From Oscillatoria sp. HE19RPO (GTDB lineage Bacteria > Cyanobacteriota > Cyanobacteriia > Cyanobacteriales > Laspinemataceae), in contig NZ_JAMXOT010000326.1 in NCBI RefSeq assembly GCF_024220515.1, positions 1 through 23,946 of the forward strand: DNA of 23,946 nucleotides, given 5' to 3'. Made by a program: the position numbers and the translations under genes. Each line of letters begins with the position of its first letter. Positions within the stretch are counted from its first letter, which is position 1. The notes beneath the pieces were generated by a model. That model did no database searches and was not told where the DNA came from. It worked only from the letters and a program-made list of their open reading frames with translations. Shown here piece by piece: positions 2,384-15,338 of this stretch.

Positions 2384-2479
2384 GCATCTAACTATATTAG
2401 CCCGCGCAGGCGGGCTTTGTCCGTGTAGCCCCACCCTTAAGGGTGCGGGTTTTTTGGGGATTTTATTTTTTGGAGTTCC
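2343..2479 (+). mobile_element. MITE-like ~137 bp element (copy A) inserted into the TpsA-like gene
   Basis: Shares TTCCAACAAATAAATCATCC, TATATTAGCCCGCGCAGGC, CCCCACCCTTAAGGGTGCGGGTTTTTTGG and ATTTTATTTTTTGGAGTTCCC with a second copy at 13575..13720. The termini are imperfect inverted repeats: left GGGTGTTCCAACAAATAAA, right reverse-complement GGAACTCCAAAAAATAAAA. It has an internal hairpin (CACCC TTAA GGGTG) followed by a T-run. There is a possible 4-bp target duplication CTAA (2339-2342 and 2480-2483). Confidence 0.55.
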
Positions 2480-6473: not shown

Positions 6474-6947
6474 ATGTTGACTTATCAAAGGTTGACGATT
6501 AAAACTGGGCTAAAACTCTACCAAATTCGGGAAAACCTCATGGGAATTGTGGAACCTACCTATCGGATAGGTGAGGAAAGTCCCACTCCCCTCTATCGAG
6601 GAAAAATCAATAAAGACTCTTTTCAAATTTCCAAAATTATCTACTATACCCGTTCGCAACGCTATCGCGAGTCTTTCTTTCCGGTGCTTGAGGGTCAAAT
6701 TAGGGAACATGACAGCGGGAGTCAAATCGACATCCAAGTTAAAATCACTCCAGGAATTCTCGTTTTTCTGGCAATCTGGCTGATGACGGCGGGAAGAGAA
6801 GCTTGCGTTTCTTTGCTGAGGCTTCAAAACGAATCTGTTTCGTCATTTTCAAGCCCTATCGGTATCTTTTTATTCGGTTTAGCCATCCCACTCATTACTT
6901 TTTTTAGCATCGCTCAACATTCTAAAAAAAAATCATCAATTTTCTGA
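6474..6947 (+). CDS. Hypothetical small membrane protein (paralog 2 of the previous ORF)
   Basis: LYRGKINKDSFQISKIIYY...FFPVLEGQIREHDSGSQIDIQVK with two C-terminal TM segments; in tandem with its paralog. Confidence 0.55.
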   Translation: MLTYQRLTIKTGLKLYQIRENLMGIVEPTYRIGEESPTPLYRGKINKDSFQISKIIYYTRSQRYRESFFPVLEGQIREHDSGSQIDIQVKITPGILVFLAIWLMTAGREACVSLLRLQNESVSSFSSPIGIFLFGLAIPLITFFSIAQHSKKKSSIF

Positions 6948-7071
6948 AAAACTGATAAACTATAAAGCTAGGACTTAGGCGAAGTAGAGGCAGTTCACCT
7001 CAGATAGAGTCACTCAGGAATAAGGGGATGCATGAGTCCTGAAAATTAATCGTCATCGATTTTTTATAAAC

Positions 7072-7998
7072 ATGAGTATTATTGTGTTCGGTAGTATCAA
7101 TCTCGATTTAGTCACCCGCACTCACCGACTTCCCAAACCTGGGGAAACTCTGGCGGGAATTAGCTTTTTTACCGCATCCGGTGGCAAAGGTGCAAATCAA
7201 GCAGTTGCTGCGGCGAAATTGGGCATGACAACTTGGATGATTGGACGGGTAGGGGGAGATAGTTTTGGACAGGAACTCCTGGAGAGTTTGCAACAGTCCG
7301 GGGTGAAGTGCGATCGCATCTTCATCGATGAAACCACGACTTCCGGAATTGCCACGATCGCCGTCGAGGATACGGGAGAAAATACCATTATAATTGTCCC
7401 CGGTGCCAACGCTGGCGTCAATGAGTCAGACTGCGATCGCCTCACGGATTTATTACCCGATGCCGCAGCATTATTATTACAATTAGAAATCCCCTTAAGC
7501 GCAGTTCTGGCAGCGGCTAAAAAAGCTCAGGATGCCGGAGTTCCGGTCATTTTAGACCCCGCACCCGCCGGAGAACTCCCCCCAGAATTGTATTCCTTAA
7601 TTGATATCATTACCCCCAATGAAACGGAACTGAGTCTCCTCACCGGAATTGCCGTGAGAGATGTAGAAACAGCCAGGGAAGCCATCAGCGAATTGCAAAG
7701 ACGGGGAGTTAGAACAGCGATCGCCAAGTTGGGGGCAAAAGGGGTGCTTTGTGCCAGGGGAGAAGAACAGTTTTTTGTCCCCCCCTTTGAAGTGGAAGCG
7801 GTGGATACGGTAGCGGCAGGAGATGCCTTTAATGGGGCATTGGCAGTGGCGATCGCCGAGGGATTGTCCTTACCCGAGGCTGTCAGATGGGGGGCTGCTG
7901 CCGGTGCCTTGGCGGTGACGAAACCCGGTGCTCAATCCGCCTTACCCAGTCGCCTCACCTTCGAGGAATTTCTTCGGGAGGGGAAAATTAAGACTTGA
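7072..7998 (+). CDS. rbsK: Ribokinase (PfkB family)
   Basis: The N-terminus GSINLDLV...PKPGETL...ASGGKGANQAVAAAKLG and the C-terminal anion hole DTVAAGDAFNGAL are collinear with E. coli RbsK. Confidence 0.9.
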   Translation: MSIIVFGSINLDLVTRTHRLPKPGETLAGISFFTASGGKGANQAVAAAKLGMTTWMIGRVGGDSFGQELLESLQQSGVKCDRIFIDETTTSGIATIAVEDTGENTIIIVPGANAGVNESDCDRLTDLLPDAAALLLQLEIPLSAVLAAAKKAQDAGVPVILDPAPAGELPPELYSLIDIITPNETELSLLTGIAVRDVETAREAISELQRRGVRTAIAKLGAKGVLCARGEEQFFVPPFEVEAVDTVAAGDAFNGALAVAIAEGLSLPEAVRWGAAAGALAVTKPGAQSALPSRLTFEEFLREGKIKT

Positions 7999-8039
7999 TC
8001 GGTTATATGGTGTTTGTTTGATCATCCACGGGGACCTAA

Positions 8040-8300
8040 CCCCCCAGCCCCCTTCCCTAAGCTAATCTTGTAGGGGTTTTGTAGGGGCGCAATGCTTGCG
8101 CCCCCTAGTTTTGGAAAACAGACCCTAGTTTTGGAAAACAGACCCTAGCTGTGAAAACAGACCCTCGCTGTGAAAACAGACCCTCGCTTTGGGCGCAAGC
8201 ATTGCGCCCCTACATAAAATAACGATTTTTATAAAATAACGATTTTTCGTAGGCGGCTTCAAAACCCCTACAAGATTAGAGGAAGAGGAAAGGGGGAGAA
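8040..8300. repeat. Complex intergenic repeat: nested inverted repeats enclosing four 20-bp tandem units and a doubled AAATAACGATTTTT motif
   Basis: CTTGTAGGGGTTTTG (8067-8081) pairs with CAAAACCCCTACAAG (8259-8273). GTAGGGGCGCAATGCTTGCGCCCC pairs with GGGGCGCAAGCATTGCGCCCCTAC. Between them are CCTAGTTTTGGAAAACAGAC x2 and CCT(A/C)GCTGTGAAAACAGAC x2. The GTAGGGGCGC and AAATAACGATTTTTCGT modules are shared with the repeats at 11.8 kb and 23.6 kb. Confidence 0.7.
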
Positions 8301-8342: not shown

Positions 8343-9023
8343 TTAATCCAAGGGTTGAGTCGTGGCGATCGCCGCAATCCCATATACTGAAATCCCCTGT
8401 TTAGACAGGGTTGTGATGGCTTCTTGACAAGTTGCCCCGGTGGTATAAATGTCATCGAGCAAAATCACCCCCTGTTTCGGCTTCCTGCGGCGAAACCCGG
8501 CCCCCACCCGCATCGCATTGGCGAGGGTTTGCTTGCGTTGTGCCGGGGATAATTGATTTAACGCTTCGGTATCTCGTACTCGTTCTAAACCCCGAGGTTC
8601 TAACGGGTATCCCGTCAGTTCACAAAAGCTTTTTGCCAGTAATTCTGCCTGATTAAATCCCCGTTTTCGTTGCTTGTCGGGATACATGGGAATGGGAACC
8701 ACCGTGAGTCCCTGAGCTTTTGCCAGGGGAGACTGTAACCAAGTTTCAGCCAAAAAGTACCCCAGGGGTTGAGCGAGTTCCGGGCAGTTTTGGTACTTCA
8801 TCACGGCGATCGCCCGTTTCATCACCCCGCCATAGCGCCCCCAAATCAATACCGGAGGGGTTTCCTTTAATAACCGTTGCTTCACCGAGAATTTTTGGCG
8901 CTGCAACTGGCGATCGCAAGCGGGACAGAGGAGGGGTTTTCCAGGGCGATCGCACAAAGGACAGTTGGGTTTTAAAAACAAATTTACCCACCCTTTCACC
9001 ATTGCCGACCAATTTCCCATCAT
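8343..9023 (-). CDS. comF: ComF family protein (double zinc-ribbon plus phosphoribosyltransferase domain)
   Basis: CPLCDR...CPACDR zinc ribbon followed by the PRTase motif GVILLDDIYTTGAT. Confidence 0.85.
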   Translation of the reverse strand: MMGNWSAMVKGWVNLFLKPNCPLCDRPGKPLLCPACDRQLQRQKFSVKQRLLKETPPVLIWGRYGGVMKRAIAVMKYQNCPELAQPLGYFLAETWLQSPLAKAQGLTVVPIPMYPDKQRKRGFNQAELLAKSFCELTGYPLEPRGLERVRDTEALNQLSPAQRKQTLANAMRVGAGFRRRKPKQGVILLDDIYTTGATCQEAITTLSKQGISVYGIAAIATTQPLD

Positions 9024-9148: not shown

Positions 9149-11626
9149 TTGATTGTGGATCACCTTTACTGGCTTGACCAAATTCAACCCTCACAACAGT
9201 ATTTAGTGGGGGACAATCCATTTTATTTAAGTCAGATGGCGCAACAGGGTTATCCGGTGCTGCCCGGATTTGTGTTGGCGGCCCCTGCATTGCGAGAATT
9301 TTTAGAAACCTATCCTTGGGAAGAACCCCTGTTTGCCGAACTCCTGAGTTCGTCGGTGCATCTGAATGTGGATGATACCCGACAGCTAAAGGCGATCGCC
9401 CAACATATCCGGGAACAGATGATGGCGGCAGAGTTACCCCTAGAGTGGATTAATGACTTGGCAATGGCAGGGGAACAACTGAGTTCCCCGGGGTTAATCC
9501 TGTCCCCGATTGTCACCCTTCCGAAACATACCCCTAGTCCGGTCAAATTTTCGGGGTTAGTGGAAAGCTATGTTTGCCTGTGCGATCCAGAGGAAATTGC
9601 CCTAGGGGTACTGCAAACTTGGGCGGAGTTATTTAGGGCGAGAAGTTTATTATATTGGCAGCGATCGCAAATTGAACTGCGTTCACTGAATCTGGCAGTT
9701 TTGGTGCAACCCTTACACAGTGCCATTACCTCCGGAACCCTCACCTATACCCCAGCGCACTGTGAAATTAAAGCCACCTGGGGATTGCCCCTATCGATTA
9801 AACTGGGACAAGCGATTCCCGATTGGTATCAAATCGAGTTAGAGAGGGGGGATGCGATCGCCCAAAGTCTGGGAAACAAACATCTCGGTTACGATTTGAG
9901 ATGGAACTCCACCCCACCGGACGAGTTAACCGCAGAAACCAGCTTGCTGAGTCCCTACAGTTGTCTTCAACCCTATTTGGTGAGTGATGAACAACAACAG
10001 AAATTTTCCCTCCAACCCCGGGAACTGGAAATATTGGGGGCGATCGCCCGCAACCTCGGCAGTCACTTAAACCGCCAGTTCAGCCTAGAATGGACCCTTG
10101 TAAAAGCCATAGAACAGTCCCCAGAACAGATCTATATCACCGGAGTGGAAGTGGGAAATCCCCTTCCCTCTTTGGAAATGACAGCCCCTGTAAACCCGCC
10201 ATCTTCCCCCAAATCGGTTCCGGTAAAGGCAATTGAGGGAGAAGAAATGCCACAGATTATCCTCGGAACTGGGGCCGCCAAAGGAGTCGCTGTCGGATTA
10301 GTATATTGCATCACCTCCCCCACGGAAGTCTTGGAACATATTCCCCCAGGACGGATCTTGATTGCCAAAGAAATAGCCCCCCATTGGCTGCATATTGTCC
10401 GACAAGCTGCGGCAGTCGTCACCGAATCCGGGGGAATGACCAGTCATGCGGCGATTCTCGCCCGAGAATTTGGCATTCCTGCGGTGGTGGGGGCTACCGG
10501 AGTCACCCAAGCGATCGCCACCGCCACGGAAATATGTGTCAATGGGGATACCGGAGAAATCTTTATACTCTCTGCGGGAACTGTCCCACCGAATCCTGGG
10601 CGATCGCCTCACCCTGTTGCCTCTGCTGTCTCAGAACCTCATCCCATGCCATTACCCGAGTCTGACCCTGTAACTGCTTCCTTCTCTCCACCCTTTCCCA
10701 CTGCTACACAGGTGTTGGTGAACCTGTCGCATCCAAGTTCCTTAGACCGAATTGCTGATACCTACTTAGATGGGGTGGGGTTATTGCGATCGGAAATGAT
10801 GGCCCTGGAAATTTTCCAATCGGAAGACCCTTACCAATGGTGCGATCGGCACAAAAACCAGGAATTTATCCACCGAATTTCCGAACCGTTAAAGCGCGTC
10901 GCCGAATTTTTCTTTCCCCGTCCAGTATTTTATCGGTCCTTAGATTTGCGCGGGTACGATTTACCGGGAGTGCGATCGCCGGGACAAACCAACATCAACT
11001 CCAATCGCAGTGCCCAAACCTTGGGAGTGCATGGCGCATTTAGCTACCTCCTCGACCCGGCATTATTTGATTTAGAACTAGAAACCTTAGCCAAATTACA
11101 ACAGGAGGGGTTAACCAACCTGCGGTTAATCATTCCCTTTGTGCGAACCGTCGAAGAATTTATATTTTGCCGGAATCGGGTCCAACAATTCAAACTCGAC
11201 CGCGTTCGGGATTTCCAACTCTGGATCATGGCGGAAGTGCCTTCTGCCTTATTTTTAATCCCAGATTATGTGCAAGCGGGAGTCCAGGGAATATCCATCG
11301 GCACCAATGATTTAACCCAGTTACTCCTCGCCGCAGACCGAGAAAATCAGCAAATGTCCCAGGTGTTTGACCCCCGTCATCCGGCGGTAATGAGGGCGAT
11401 TCATCAACTGATTCAACAGGCAAAAGCAGCGGGGATTCCTTGTGCGATTTGTGGCGGCGCACCCACCCATTATCCAGAAACTATTGATACTTTAGTGCGA
11501 TGGGGAATTGATGGAATTTCCGTCGAACCCGAGGCGATCGCGCGCACTCATCAGGCGATCGCCCGGTCCGAACAGCGCATCCTGTTAGAAACTGCCCGTC
11601 GTGACTCCGGGGATTGTCCGTTTTAA
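9149..11626 (+). CDS. PEP-utilizing enzyme family protein (PEP synthase / pyruvate-phosphate-dikinase-like, three-domain)
   Basis: The N-terminal nucleotide-binding region resembles PpsA (LVGDNPFYLSQMAQQGYPVLPGFVL). The central mobile His domain is GGMTSHAAILAREFGIPAVVG. The C-terminal TIM-barrel carries GTNDLTQ. A Pro-rich linker lies around residues 470-520. The start is TTG at 9149, or GTG at 9155. Confidence 0.8.
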   Translation: MIVDHLYWLDQIQPSQQYLVGDNPFYLSQMAQQGYPVLPGFVLAAPALREFLETYPWEEPLFAELLSSSVHLNVDDTRQLKAIAQHIREQMMAAELPLEWINDLAMAGEQLSSPGLILSPIVTLPKHTPSPVKFSGLVESYVCLCDPEEIALGVLQTWAELFRARSLLYWQRSQIELRSLNLAVLVQPLHSAITSGTLTYTPAHCEIKATWGLPLSIKLGQAIPDWYQIELERGDAIAQSLGNKHLGYDLRWNSTPPDELTAETSLLSPYSCLQPYLVSDEQQQKFSLQPRELEILGAIARNLGSHLNRQFSLEWTLVKAIEQSPEQIYITGVEVGNPLPSLEMTAPVNPPSSPKSVPVKAIEGEEMPQIILGTGAAKGVAVGLVYCITSPTEVLEHIPPGRILIAKEIAPHWLHIVRQAAAVVTESGGMTSHAAILAREFGIPAVVGATGVTQAIATATEICVNGDTGEIFILSAGTVPPNPGRSPHPVASAVSEPHPMPLPESDPVTASFSPPFPTATQVLVNLSHPSSLDRIADTYLDGVGLLRSEMMALEIFQSEDPYQWCDRHKNQEFIHRISEPLKRVAEFFFPRPVFYRSLDLRGYDLPGVRSPGQTNINSNRSAQTLGVHGAFSYLLDPALFDLELETLAKLQQEGLTNLRLIIPFVRTVEEFIFCRNRVQQFKLDRVRDFQLWIMAEVPSALFLIPDYVQAGVQGISIGTNDLTQLLLAADRENQQMSQVFDPRHPAVMRAIHQLIQQAKAAGIPCAICGGAPTHYPETIDTLVRWGIDGISVEPEAIARTHQAIARSEQRILLETARRDSGDCPF

Positions 11627-11642
11627 CCCTTATATCAAGTTA

Positions 11643-12069
11643 CAACACCCGGCGGGGGTTCTCTCCGGTCCCCTCCCCTTGGCAAGGGGAGGGTTAGGGT
11701 GGGGTTCTTTTTGTGCGATTCCCTACGGGATAGCTCCGCTTACCGCACATCACGAAGAAAGAGGTTGGACCAGTCTCCATACAGGCGCGATCGCCCTAGC
11801 CCTGTCAAGGTGATAAATTTAATGACGAAAAATCAGGGTTTCTTGGACAGGCGATCACTCTCGCGCCCCTACAATCTACACACCTTGACAGGGCTAGTGC
11901 GATCGCCCCCAAGAGTGCGTGACGTGGCGGTAAGCGGAGCTATCCCGTAGGGAATCGGCAAAGAGGGACCCCACCCTAACCCTCCCCTTGCCAAGGGGAG
12001 GGAACCGGAGGTGCAGTTAAGCGTAAAAAACCTACTCTTGTATAAAGGATTAATCCCCCGCCGGTTGTT
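11643..12069. repeat. ~430 bp nested imperfect palindrome (four concentric inverted-repeat layers) around one copy of the 65-bp GTAGGGGCGC repeat unit
   Basis: Four layers, each pairing with its reverse complement: CAACACCCGGCGGGGG (11643) with CCCCCGCCGGTTGTT (12055); CCCTCCCCTTGGCAAGGGGAGGG(TTAGGGTGGGG) (11671) with (CCCCACCCTAA)CCCTCCCCTTGCCAAGGGGAGGG (11969); GATTCCCTACGGGATAGCTCCGCTTACCGC (11722) with GCGGTAAGCGGAGCTATCCCGTAGGGAATC (11925); CTAGCCCTGTCAAGGTG (11794) with CACCTTGACAGGGCTAG (11881). The core at 11813-11880 is the reverse complement of the 65-mer unit seen at 23.6 kb. Confidence 0.7.
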
Positions 12070-12073
12070 CCCA

Positions 12074-12121
12074 CTCTTGCTCCCCCTTCCCTCTTAGGGA
12101 AGGGGGTTGGGGGGTTAGGTC
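12074..12121. repeat. Dispersed hairpin repeat CTCTTGCTCCCCCTTCCCTCNNAGGGAAGGGGGNTGGGGGGTTAGGTC (copy 1)
   Basis: Near-identical copy at 15292..15338. Both copies sit at gene 3' ends, so they may act as terminators. Confidence 0.5.
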
Positions 12122-12151
12122 AATCTGGGTAATCAAGCAACCATAATATTA

Positions 12152-13030
12152 TTAACCCTCCGAATCCGTTGCTGGAGACTCCACTGGCGCGACTGGACTC
12201 CAAGCACTTTTCTGCTGACTATTGCGGTGCATCAGCGCCAAAGTCAATTGTTTAAATAACCAGTATAAAACCGTAATCACCACAAACGTGACAATCATCA
12301 CCAAAACCGGACGACGACCAATCAAATCATTCATCACACTGCGGACTAAAATATCTGGGTCCGTCACAATATCCCAAGTATTAAACCGTTGAAAGCGACC
12401 CAGATAAATCCCAATTGCCGTCAACCCATGTATCACCAATTCCGCCAACCCAGTCCAGCGACGTAACCCAGACCGTTCCATATACCAAGTTAAATAAATC
12501 AGGGACAGAACATAAGATTGAAACCCCACAATCATAAAGATTAGATACTGGGGAATCAAAGCTAACGTAATAATCCAGACCGAGTATCCGGCGCGAATAT
12601 CAGTGATTAAATGAATCACATCGGTTAACACATAAGGCGCATTCGGTAAAAAGGTGATAAACGCCACAAATCCCACCCACCATAAGAGAGAACGCGAAAC
12701 CGTCGAGCTATTTTGACTGCGCCGCAACTGCCAAATTTCCGACGACATCAAAATCAGAGTCAGGATGAGAATCCAGATTAAGTAATCAGCACTGATTCGT
12801 TGCAGCAGGAAAATTCCCGTCCGGAAAACCCGGTGAGCAGACGGCAGAAAAGTGGCCCCTAAAATGAGAAACACTCCCCATCGTAACCATTGCGATCGGG
12901 GTTTGTGAAACAACCAAAAACTCAACGCTAAGGGAACCACCGCTAAAAACGTATTCCAAGCCATAAAGCGATGATTGCCTTCCAGGGCCCCCCATGCAAC
13001 AGTCATCCAGTCCATCAATTGAGCAGTCAT
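12152..13030 (-). CDS. Polytopic integral membrane protein, DUF1361-like
   Basis: About 8 hydrophobic segments. LPNAPYVLTDVIHL and RFQRFNTWD resemble DUF1361 hallmark motifs (recalled from memory, not searched). Confidence 0.55.
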   Translation of the reverse strand: MTAQLMDWMTVAWGALEGNHRFMAWNTFLAVVPLALSFWLFHKPRSQWLRWGVFLILGATFLPSAHRVFRTGIFLLQRISADYLIWILILTLILMSSEIWQLRRSQNSSTVSRSLLWWVGFVAFITFLPNAPYVLTDVIHLITDIRAGYSVWIITLALIPQYLIFMIVGFQSYVLSLIYLTWYMERSGLRRWTGLAELVIHGLTAIGIYLGRFQRFNTWDIVTDPDILVRSVMNDLIGRRPVLVMIVTFVVITVLYWLFKQLTLALMHRNSQQKSAWSPVAPVESPATDSEG

Positions 13031-14469: not shown

Positions 14470-14886
14470 ATGCCTCGATTAGACCTGATCCACCACGCCG
14501 TTAAAACCGCCTTGCTCAAAGAGGGGTGGACCATCACCGATGATCCCTACATCCTCAAATATCGCCGCACGACTCTCTACGCCGATCTAGGAGTGGAACG
14601 TGCTATTTCTGTCCAACGCCACAATCAAAAACTGGTTATAGAAATCAAAAGTTTCGTAGGAGTTTCCAAAATTCAAGACCTCAAAGAAGCACTTGGACAA
14701 CTGGATATTTATTCTTACATCCTCGAAGAAATCGAACCCGATCGCAAACTTTACCTTGCGGTTAGCACTACCACTTATCAAAATATTTTCCAGCTAGACA
14801 TTGCTCAACTCATTCTCAAAAAGCGCTACTTGCCTTTAATCATTGTTGATTTAGAAACCGAGGAAATCACCCAATGGATAAACTAA
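14470..14886 (+). CDS. xisH: XisH family protein (fdxN-element excision controlling factor homolog)
   Basis: MPRLDLIHHAVKTALLKEGWTITDDPY...LVIEIKSF is characteristic of XisH. It overlaps the following xisI by 13 nt, the usual arrangement. Confidence 0.85.
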   Translation: MPRLDLIHHAVKTALLKEGWTITDDPYILKYRRTTLYADLGVERAISVQRHNQKLVIEIKSFVGVSKIQDLKEALGQLDIYSYILEEIEPDRKLYLAVSTTTYQNIFQLDIAQLILKKRYLPLIIVDLETEEITQWIN

Positions 14887-15215
14887 CAGACTATCCCCAA
14901 CTCATCAAAACTCTTCTGATGGCCCATGTTAATCGCTGTCAGCAACATCCCGACCCGAATATCGAAACTTTTTTAATCTGTGATGAAGCACAAGGACATT
15001 ATCTGTGGATGACCCTAGGCTGGCAAAAGGGCGAACGTTTTTCTGGGGCGACGGTGTACGTTCGTTTGCGTGACCAGAAATTCTGGATTGAGGAAGACTG
15101 GACAGAAGAGGGCATTGCCACGGAACTGGTGGCAGCCGGTGTCCCCAAAGAGGATATTGTACTGGCTTTCCATGAACCTAAAATTCGTTCTGAGACGGGT
15201 TTTGCTGTGGTCTAA
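14874..15215 (+). CDS. xisI: XisI family protein
   Basis: MDKLTDYPQLIKTLLMAHVN...FLICDEAQGHYLWMTLGWQKGERFSGATVYVRLRDQKFWIEEDWTE is characteristic of XisI. Confidence 0.85.
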   Translation: MDKLTDYPQLIKTLLMAHVNRCQQHPDPNIETFLICDEAQGHYLWMTLGWQKGERFSGATVYVRLRDQKFWIEEDWTEEGIATELVAAGVPKEDIVLAFHEPKIRSETGFAVV

Positions 15216-15291
15216 AGGCAATGATATCCTGCTGATGCATTCAGGCGGATTCATGTCCCGAGAAACACGAGGAAAGAGGAATTTCGCTCCC

Positions 15292-15338
15292 CTCTTGCTC
15301 CCCCTTCCCTCCCAGGGAAGGGGGCTGGGGGGTTAGGT
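15292..15338. repeat. Dispersed hairpin repeat CTCTTGCTCCCCCTTCCCTCCCAGGGAAGGGGGCTGGGGGGTTAGGTC (copy 2)
   Basis: Copy of 12074..12121. Lies between the convergent 3' ends of xisI and the MVP gene and overlaps the MVP stop codon, so it may act as a bidirectional terminator. Confidence 0.5.

Follow-up and report, generated by a model that had tools for sequence, protein, structure and literature searches.

The stretch of DNA analysed here (the window, 23,946 nt of Oscillatoria sp. HE19RPO, contig NZ_JAMXOT010000326.1) contains a nested palindrome of about 430 bp at positions 11643-12069, in the space between two convergent genes. Very probably the palindrome is not a single functional unit but arose as a by-product when small mobile repeats were inserted at this gene junction at least five times in succession. 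The observations that carry this conclusion are orthologous sites in empty and intermediate states, independent copies of the modules elsewhere, target-site duplications (TSDs), a parent insertion sequence (IS) and the specificity of a 24-nt module for the highly iterated palindrome HIP1 (GCGATCGC) in 13/13 copies. HIP1 is abundant throughout the window.

The palindrome starts 17 nt past the stop codon of a phosphoenolpyruvate (PEP)-utilizing-enzyme gene (9149-11626, plus strand; domains PPDK_N, PEP-utilizers and PEP-utilizers_C), directly 3' of it as a preliminary description of the sequence had stated, and it ends 83 nt short of the stop codon of a convergent DUF1361 membrane-protein gene (12152-13030, minus strand). 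The DUF1361 protein is 94% identical to its counterpart in Laspinema olomoucense, 92% in L. palackyanum and 90% in Phormidium pseudopriestleyi. These identities and the many HIP1 sites point to a Laspinema-like filamentous cyanobacterium as the source. The same gene pair was compared among these relatives. The two stop codons are separated by 3 bp in L. palackyanum, the genes overlap by 4 bp in P. pseudopriestleyi, and the stop codons lie 6-7 bp apart in GCA_038321985.1 (L007; loci collected for comparison carry L numbers) and in two short-read (Logan) contigs. The intergenic region of the window measures 525 bp, versus an empty junction in these five relatives. Since the stop codons abut or overlap in all five, the 525 bp of the window are inserted DNA. 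In L. olomoucense (L001) the junction measures 330 bp and represents an intermediate state. Its alignment with the window has exactly three large indels, of 112, 24 and 60 bp, and the remaining differences are point substitutions and a few gaps of 1-2 nt. L. olomoucense possesses the left outer arm and the second layer of the palindrome but lacks the inner miniature inverted-repeat transposable element (MITE), the right-arm 24-mer and the right outer arm.

A single composite non-autonomous element, transposing whole by means of its outermost inverted repeats, is a highly improbable reading of the palindrome. A 15-nt inverted pair does stand at the boundaries and every module belongs to a repeat family. 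However, the partial structure in L. olomoucense does not fit a single unit, no duplication was noted beside the outer arms, and copies of the outer module at other places form tandem arrays or self-contained hairpins. Moreover, no second locus joins the hairpin of the second layer (module B) and the 17-bp terminal inverted repeat (TIR) of the inner MITE. Among 205 loci (1.5 Mb), 76 with B and 85 with the 17-bp TIR, the two lie within 400 bp of each other in the window only, and the composite is therefore not a recurring unit. A composite of non-autonomous elements had been among the candidates of the preliminary description. The layers are indeed such elements, but they do not form one unit, as is seen from the L. 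olomoucense intermediate and the independent modules elsewhere. A mapping of the modules had been proposed as a check; their order is not repeated in the 1.5 Mb of related loci, and each module was found independently elsewhere. The idea of a recombination hotspot stands in the sense of an insertion hotspot and not otherwise. It is extremely unlikely that the palindrome is an assembly artefact of collapsed or mis-joined repeats. The region is made up entirely of multi-copy repeats, and one metagenome contig (L005) has a suspicious duplication of the 3' end of the PEP-utilizing-enzyme gene, but the independently assembled L. olomoucense isolate has a near-identical structure that is mainly three clean indels apart.

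An inverted-repeat scan of 11400-12300 found three nested pairs (Table 1). The preliminary description had listed four concentric pairs, which are present where it placed them; its layers 2 and 3 together make up the 84-nt arms, one half each. Folding of the plus strand as RNA gave -281 kcal/mol (z = -23.8) and folding of the minus strand gave -293 kcal/mol (z = -19.4), and in neither case did any of 100 shuffled sequences equal the value. It is confirmed that the inverted repeats far exceed chance and that each strand forms a single long predicted hairpin, as had been proposed before either strand was folded. The two open reading frames (ORFs) inside the palindrome have no significant Pfam match and the region is absent in most relatives, in agreement with the earlier view that they are artefacts.

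Table 1. Inverted pairs, mobile repeats and related modules of the window
Feature	Coordinates	Strand	Description
Outer inverted pair	11644-11658 / 12055-12069		15 nt, 93%
Middle inverted pair	11663-11746 / 11927-12010		84 nt, 92%
Inner inverted pair	11784-11812 / 11881-11909		29 nt, 93%
Left outer arm, CAACACCCGGCGGGGG	11643-11658	+	Copy of 26-mer module core
Layer-2 MITE	11661-12044		Member of dispersed long-TIR family; left-truncated, with three later insertions
Left B hairpin of layer-2 TIR, CCGGTCCCCTCCCCTTGGCAAGGGGAGGGTTAGGGTGGGGT	11663-11709	+	
Left-arm 24-mer	11720-11743	-	GTAAGCGGAGCTATCCCGTAGGGA on minus strand; splits HIP1 as GCGAT/.../CGC (plus strand); also in L. olomoucense
Left 10-bp TSD copy, CGCGATCGCC	11786-11795		HIP1 inside
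102-bp MITE	11796-11897	-	17-bp TIRs CTAGCCCTGTCAAGGTG around one diverged 65-mer unit
Right 10-bp TSD copy, TGCGATCGCC	11898-11907		
Right-arm 24-mer	11930-11953	+	Inserted as GCG/x/ATCGG (x, 24-mer); not in L. olomoucense, whose site is GGCGATCGGC
Right B hairpin of layer-2 TIR	11964-12010	-	
Right outer arm, CCCCCGCCGGTTGTT	12055-12069	-	Inverted 26-mer module core; absent in L. olomoucense (within 60-bp indel)
D module, just outside palindrome	12071-12149	+	G-rich hairpin CCCCCTTCCCT-CTTA-GGGAAGGGGG, TTGGGGGGTTAGGTC tail and extension
Sister MITE	23575-23807	+	Same 17-bp TIRs, three tandem 65-mers; TSD GGTTTTAAcT/GGTTTTAAgT

The 112-bp indel between L. olomoucense and the window consists of the 102-bp MITE and its 10-bp TSD. 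At the MITE site L. olomoucense has a single uninterrupted GTGCGATCGCC and reads ...ACAGGTGCGATCGCCCCCAAG. The window reads ...ACAGG-CGCGATCGCC, then the MITE (CTAGCCCTGTCAAGGTG ... CACCTTGACAGGGCTAG), then TGCGATCGCC-CCCAAG. The target that the MITE duplicated is palindromic, and therefore a 17-nt TIR gives an apparent arm of 29 nt. The interior of the MITE is a GTAG-headed hairpin that resembles the repetitive extragenic palindromic (REP) sequences, plus an A/T-rich spacer. It had been claimed that this core is the reverse complement of the 65-mer repeated near the end of the window, and the two (the tandem 65-mers lie at 23599-23793) are about 80% identical in that orientation. The innermost pair had also been said to bound the 65-mer array, and CTAGCCCTGTCAAGGTG is found on both sides of it, at 23575 and 23791-23807.

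A scan of metagenome contigs with the 17-mer CTAGCCCTGTCAAGGTG gave 80 loci. Together, the window, the relatives and the metagenomes contain 27 elements bounded by the 17-bp TIR, with sizes that include 102, 123, 160, 179, 180, 191, 233, 235 and 378 bp, and the short ones have at least 10 unrelated interiors. The 10-bp TSD is perfect in 12 of the 27 and matches at 9 of 10 positions in six more, which include both copies in the window. The target was the loop of a REP-like palindrome, GTGGGCAnTGCCCAC, in 16/27. This preference and the insertion of the window copy into a HIP1 site argue that the transposase favours palindromic targets. The flanks are reverse-complementary and not direct repeats in three cases, among L063-type elements and the metagenome loci L130-L199.

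Two longer elements of 1488 bp (L125 and L201) have the same 17-bp ends and perfect 10-bp TSDs. Their frameshifted ORFs match PF01609 (DDE_Tnp_1) with 24.8 bits against a cut-off of 23. The best NCBIfam match is the IS4 family model NF033592 (E 4e-13), below its curated cut-off because the ORFs are fragmentary. Intact homologues of 455 aa carry PF01609 and some are named IS4 transposase; they include a 'transposase [Laspinema]' (P0169). The gene for the 455-aa transposase lies in a 1.94-kb IS of L. olomoucense and of a second Laspinema genome (L205 and L206), with the ends TAGCCCTGTCAAGGTG...CACCTTGACAGGGCTA and TSDs of 11-12 bp. Overall, the TSDs of the IS copies are 10-12 bp long, and the border between TIR and TSD is ambiguous by one base. 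The intact parent IS is thus found in the same L. olomoucense genome as the site that is empty of the MITE. To judge from the shared TIRs, the TSD length, the non-coding interior and the empty orthologous site, the 102-bp element is a non-autonomous derivative of an IS4-family IS, and it may have been mobilised in trans by the IS4-family transposase of Laspinema.

MITEs are known in cyanobacteria, for example in Microcystis and as 'Nezha' in Anabaena. The elements with the 17-bp TIR resemble IS4-derived MITEs in that the TIRs are those of the autonomous IS, the TSD is 10-12 bp long, there is no ORF and copies are many, and also in their varied interiors and in presence/absence polymorphism among close relatives. 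They differ from such MITEs in two respects. In the window family the interior is a REP-like unit with a GTAG head, present in different tandem numbers (one versus three 65-mers), and 16/27 of the elements, as well as the window copy in HIP1, lie in palindromic sites.

Each of the two 32-nt inner arms corresponds to a 24-nt mini-element lodged in a split HIP1 site. The fetched sequence (1.5 Mb) contains 13 copies of this 24-mer in 11 loci, all in Oscillatoriales of the Laspinema group. All 13 have the flanks GCG/x/ATCGC, from which the HIP1 halves differ at one position at most, and this places the insertion point between bases 3 and 4 of HIP1. The right-arm 24-nt indel is exact. L. olomoucense reads GACGTGGCG^ATCGGCC and the window reads GACGTGGCG-GTAAGCGGAGCTATCCCGTAGGGA-ATCGGCA, and no target duplication is present. 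A ragged deletion of about 25 nt was also considered for this difference and was rejected, as the alignment gives an exact 24-nt indel at GCG^ATCG. Among the fetched loci, including those of Nostocales, a search for other recurrent inserts of 18-30 nt that split HIP1 found no other dispersed element; the other recurrent matches were tandem repeats or orthologous gene segments.

The 24-mers also bear on the suggestion that the palindrome arose locally in one event of inverted duplication, through template switching or hairpin-primed repair, with a lone 65-mer at its centre. A one-off local duplication and inversion was the fallback of the preliminary description. The arms are 92-93% complementary, as would be expected of a recent duplication, and the 24-mers stand at mirror positions. 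However, the arms are TIRs of a dispersed family of transposable elements whose copies have their own TSDs. In addition, the two 24-mers have different flanks (ATCGCACAAAAAG vs ATCGGCAAAGAGG), and the right copy is a clean 24-nt insertion relative to L. olomoucense. The two 24-mers therefore arrived independently, and their mirror symmetry reflects two hits on mirror-image HIP1 sites and not the copying of an arm. Local inverted duplication is refuted for layers 2-4 by the dispersed copies and is conceivable for the outer pair alone; as an account of the whole palindrome it is very unlikely.

Small dispersed repeats (SDRs) of 21-27 nt and 'complex nested insertions' are said to have been described in Nostoc punctiforme by Elhai et al. 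in 2008. The 24-mer of the window is similar to SDR5 of this group in being very short (within the SDR range of 21-27 nt), in splitting HIP1 and in causing no target duplication. Like SDRs, it occurs inside MITEs and adds to nested repeat structures. In Nostoc, SDR5 enters HIP1 after its third base and leaves the target unduplicated (PMC4390886). The Nostoc element has 21 nt and has been described from heterocystous cyanobacteria only (PMC5861425; bioRxiv 10.64898/2026.06.24.733823), and SDR-like repeats have been reported from Nostocaceae only (PMC5861425). In contrast, the element in the window is 24 nt long and is found in Oscillatoriales of the Laspinema group. The likeness to SDR5 is one of size and insertion geometry, and because its hosts are outside Nostocaceae the element is classed as SDR5-like and not as SDR5.

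Another MITE family, here called layer 2, accounts for the 84-nt arms, which are its long inverted ends; the family was recovered by searching species-representative genomes with a 22-mer from the arm. Loci of the Laspinema group have inverted B modules that enclose a common interior with CACGTCACG, GAAGAAAGAGGTTGGACCAGYCTCYATACAGG and a central HIP1. Full copies measure about 300-355 bp and have the termini CTTACAAGAGTAGGTTTTTTAC..., and at least 10 dispersed copies were found (L015, L055, L057, L069, L078, L090, L099, L104, L112 and L118). Two of these have perfect 11-bp TSDs, L057 (ACTCCGGTCCC) and L069 (GCGGGGGGGAT). The copy in the window keeps its right terminus only (GTAAAAAACCTACTCTT, 12023-12039). 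In L090 and L118 the 24-mer sits in the central HIP1 of layer 2, and in the window the IS4-type MITE does so. No parent IS was found as a pair of layer-2 termini 1-3 kb apart in the fetched loci. When ORFs within 2.5 kb of B hairpins at 116 loci were clustered (the clusters were not annotated), no recurrent transposase was found and only large multi-copy protein families recurred.

Several further observations were made on layer 2 and its B hairpin. At L069 (218-558) the B hairpin of the layer-2 copy is kept via compensatory changes (CCGGACCTTGGCAAGGTCCGG). At L099 (6258-6630) a layer-2 copy lies between inverted arrays of the heptamer GGATGGGGA, which extend the palindrome into the flanks. 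A 22-mer of the B hairpin, CAAGGGGAGGGTTAGGGTGGGG (window 11683-11704), has exact matches in more than 116 stretches of species-representative genomes (loci L009-L124). The matches listed divide into about 63 from cyanobacteria and about 53 from other bacteria, namely Beta-, Gamma- and Deltaproteobacteria, one Chloroflexota and one Chitinophagaceae. The loops and tails around it vary by lineage. In Proteobacteria it is found in doublets that resemble REPINs (REP doublets forming hairpins), together with a second, distinct G-rich hairpin. The tail of the B hairpin, GGGGAGGGTTAGGGTGGGG, matches a G-quadruplex motif and could form such a structure. The B hairpin has no Rfam family among the 18 related loci searched and no recurrent neighbour gene, and a literature search with the four module sequences gave no match.

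The arms of the outer pair match the CAACAMCCGGCGGGGG module in inverted orientation to each other. The preliminary description had assigned this pair to the 26-mer module, and the core of the tandem unit is matched with 1-2 mismatches. The module occurs elsewhere as a tandem array at the window end, in small hairpins of L. palackyanum (L082), which are self-contained and read CAACACCCGGCGGGGG-loop-CCCCCGCC, and at the orthologous junction of L001 and L005. A single hairpin whose loop was interrupted by the layer-2 MITE was considered as the source of the outer pair. Two inverted copies are at least as likely, because the right outer arm reads ...CCCCCGCCGGTTGTT versus ...CCCCCGCCTAACAG in the intact hairpins of L082. 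The 26-bp tandem array itself (23807-23946) has at least 5.4 copies that are 100% identical and continues past the window end. A diverged 26-bp unit lies at 23540-23572, upstream of the sister MITE; with 26-bp units on both sides, the sister MITE was evidently inserted into the array.

The D module at 12071-12149 belongs to the same insertion cluster as the palindrome. Further copies are found at 15289-15339 and, reverse-complemented, at 8005-8061. L. olomoucense lacks the right outer arm and half of the adjoining D hairpin, and since D is complete elsewhere the 60-bp difference is most simply a deletion in L. olomoucense. The D hairpin (8033-8058, 12080-12121 and 15298-15339) is found at 3/3 convergent gene junctions of the window. 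At the third of these, the TTAGG of the D tail (15333-15335) provides the stop codon of a gene for a major vault protein.

REP, REPIN and bacterial interspersed mosaic element (BIME) repeats form mosaics that are mobilised by REP-associated tyrosine transposases (RAYT, TnpA-REP) (Bertels & Rainey 2011, PMC3116915; Quentin et al. 2018, PMC6006769). The repeats at the window junction are like these in being extragenic hairpin repeats, in forming long hairpins from inverted doublets and in clustering as mosaics between convergent genes. The 65-mer and several other repeats in the window have the canonical 5' GTAG head of cyanobacterial REPs. The 65-mer core, TTGTAGGGGCGC...GCGCC, is made up of a 5' GT[AG]G head and a GC-rich imperfect palindrome; the B and D hairpins have no GTAG head. 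Unlike REPs and REPINs, the two best-characterised layers are marked by TSDs and by a parent with a DDE transposase, as opposed to a Y1/HUH mechanism. No RAYT gene was found among the window ORFs examined, although no search aimed at RAYT was made.

The following order of events is proposed for the palindrome, and the order of the earliest steps in particular is conjectural. First, hairpin modules of the 26-mer and D types and the long-TIR MITE would have opened the intergenic space. A 24-nt SDR5-like element would then have entered the HIP1 site in the left arm of the long-TIR MITE. Two further insertions took place in the lineage of the window only. A second 24-mer landed in the right arm, in a HIP1-like site that mirrors the first, and the 102-bp IS4-derived MITE then transposed into the central HIP1 and duplicated 10 bp. 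The concentric shape probably has two causes. Each element is bounded by its own inverted repeats, and late arrivals prefer palindromic targets (HIP1 and REP loops) that lie centrally or symmetrically in a palindromic element.

Some points weigh against this history. The 10-bp TSDs of the two MITE copies in the window have one mismatch each. The layer-2 MITE lacks its left terminus in the window, so its own TSD is unreadable at the site. The views taken of the outer pair (two copies or one split hairpin) and of the polarity of the 60-bp indel rest on parsimony. The module census was drawn from relatives and metagenomes, and thus a second composite copy in the source genome is possible. A secondary, acquired function, as a transcript end or an RNase III site, is conceivable but lacks support.

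It was also considered that the palindrome is a functional RNA or DNA structure, either a 3'-UTR (untranslated region) hairpin that acts as a bidirectional transcription end, an insulator or an mRNA stabiliser, or a structured noncoding RNA (ncRNA). The predicted folding is extreme on both strands, D hairpins are present at 3/3 convergent junctions of the window, and the B hairpin of L069 is kept via compensatory changes. To our knowledge cyanobacteria lack Rho, and in E. coli REP hairpins stabilise the upstream mRNA; both points count for a function. On the other hand, a search of the window with Rfam 15 at the gathering threshold gave no family that matches the palindrome. At E<=10 the best hit in the palindrome region was a eukaryotic snoRNA model with 19.7 bits against a cut-off of 64, and an Rfam search of the 18 related loci gave nothing relevant. 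No intrinsic terminator (hairpin and T-run) was found on either strand of 11627-12151, and no promoter-like site was found in the same interval. The conservation of the arms is accounted for by transposon ends. Furthermore, the junction is empty in five relatives with abutting genes, and therefore the flanking genes do not need the structure. A function of this kind, original or acquired, is improbable, and the structured ncRNA of the preliminary description is disfavoured by the missing Rfam match, the missing promoter and terminator signals and the five empty sites. The hairpin may affect transcription end-points or DNA stability, but an acquired role as a transcript end-point or in processing is needed to explain nothing that was seen. 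The insertion spot between two gene ends is harmless.

The kinds of element in this nest (MITEs, SDR-type mini-elements and REP-like hairpins) are already known, and the window families are new members of them. What is new is these families, an SDR5-like element in hosts other than Nostocaceae, and the use of HIP1 as a target by an IS4-type MITE. The locus is a clean, datable case of a long bacterial palindrome that formed by nested transposition and not by duplication. It links a cyanobacterial MITE family to an IS4-family parent and shows HIP1 and REP loops as insertion targets. It also brings into Oscillatoriales the SDR5-type mini-elements that split HIP1, a group whose insertion mechanism has been a question since 2008, and supplies an orthologous empty site for them. 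The case matters for annotation, since the ORFs inside the palindrome are spurious and hairpins like this one can pass for ncRNA genes. As an insertion nest the locus is ordinary in kind and unusually clear, and it changes no paradigm.

A wider view can be put forward tentatively, as one that may well not hold. Palindromic motifs, and HIP1 in particular, might serve as landing pads for at least two mechanisms, that of the IS4-type MITE, which duplicates its target, and that of the 24-mer, which does not, and cyanobacterial MITEs would in this way become self-similar nested palindromes. The 24-mer would be the first SDR5-like element outside Nostocaceae, and the 22-mer of the B hairpin might reflect a hairpin repeat that has spread across phyla. 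Among the matches listed, this exact 22-mer is common to REPIN-like repeats of Proteobacteria, Chloroflexota and Bacteroidota. If this view is true, the filled and empty sites of the 24-mer provide a second system for studying the mechanism of SDR insertion.

Within 8005-8279 the window contains a second nested palindrome (8062-8279). Its arms lie at 8062-8084/8257-8279 and 8077-8103/8191-8217, it encloses tandem repeats of 19-20 bp and 17 bp, and a D module is found at 8033-8058. The palindrome occupies the convergent junction between a PfkB kinase gene (7072-7998) and a gene at 8343-9023. This junction is empty in L. olomoucense (L001) and L. palackyanum (L002), where the genes are 1 bp apart or overlap, and it holds a single D or B module in L003 and L007. 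A second nested palindrome at a junction that is empty in relatives argues that the nesting of insertions is a general pattern.

At the junction of the main palindrome, L005 (ENA metagenome contig ERZ27266017 k141_9624, 6840-7100) has two direct copies of the B module and a second copy of the final ~72 bp of the PEP-utilizing-enzyme gene, which begins at a HIP1 site. One of the duplicated 3' ends is like the window allele and the other is like the empty allele. The duplication is either a HIP1-associated recombinant or an assembly chimera. In L005 and L. olomoucense, a small gene and a PIN-domain gene lie upstream of DUF1361 in place of the XisH/XisI gene pair, which is at 14470-15215 in the window.

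Some other features of the window were recorded. A search with Rfam at gathering level gave a lone 24-nt CRISPR-DR28 match (2398-2421, minus strand) with no array, and a match to 5_ureB_sRNA (84 bits, 21968-22254, minus strand) that is antisense in a urease alpha gene and is probably due to the conserved coding sequence of urease. A 12-bp tandem repeat, TACTCCCACAGA, is present in 12.8 copies at 19697-19848, in the N-terminal part of a CHAT-domain protein (ORF 19536-21494). The major vault protein homologue (15333-17978, minus strand) has 881 aa with Vault repeats and an MVP shoulder domain (E 2e-67), and its gene is conserved in L. olomoucense and disrupted in the P. pseudopriestleyi locus.

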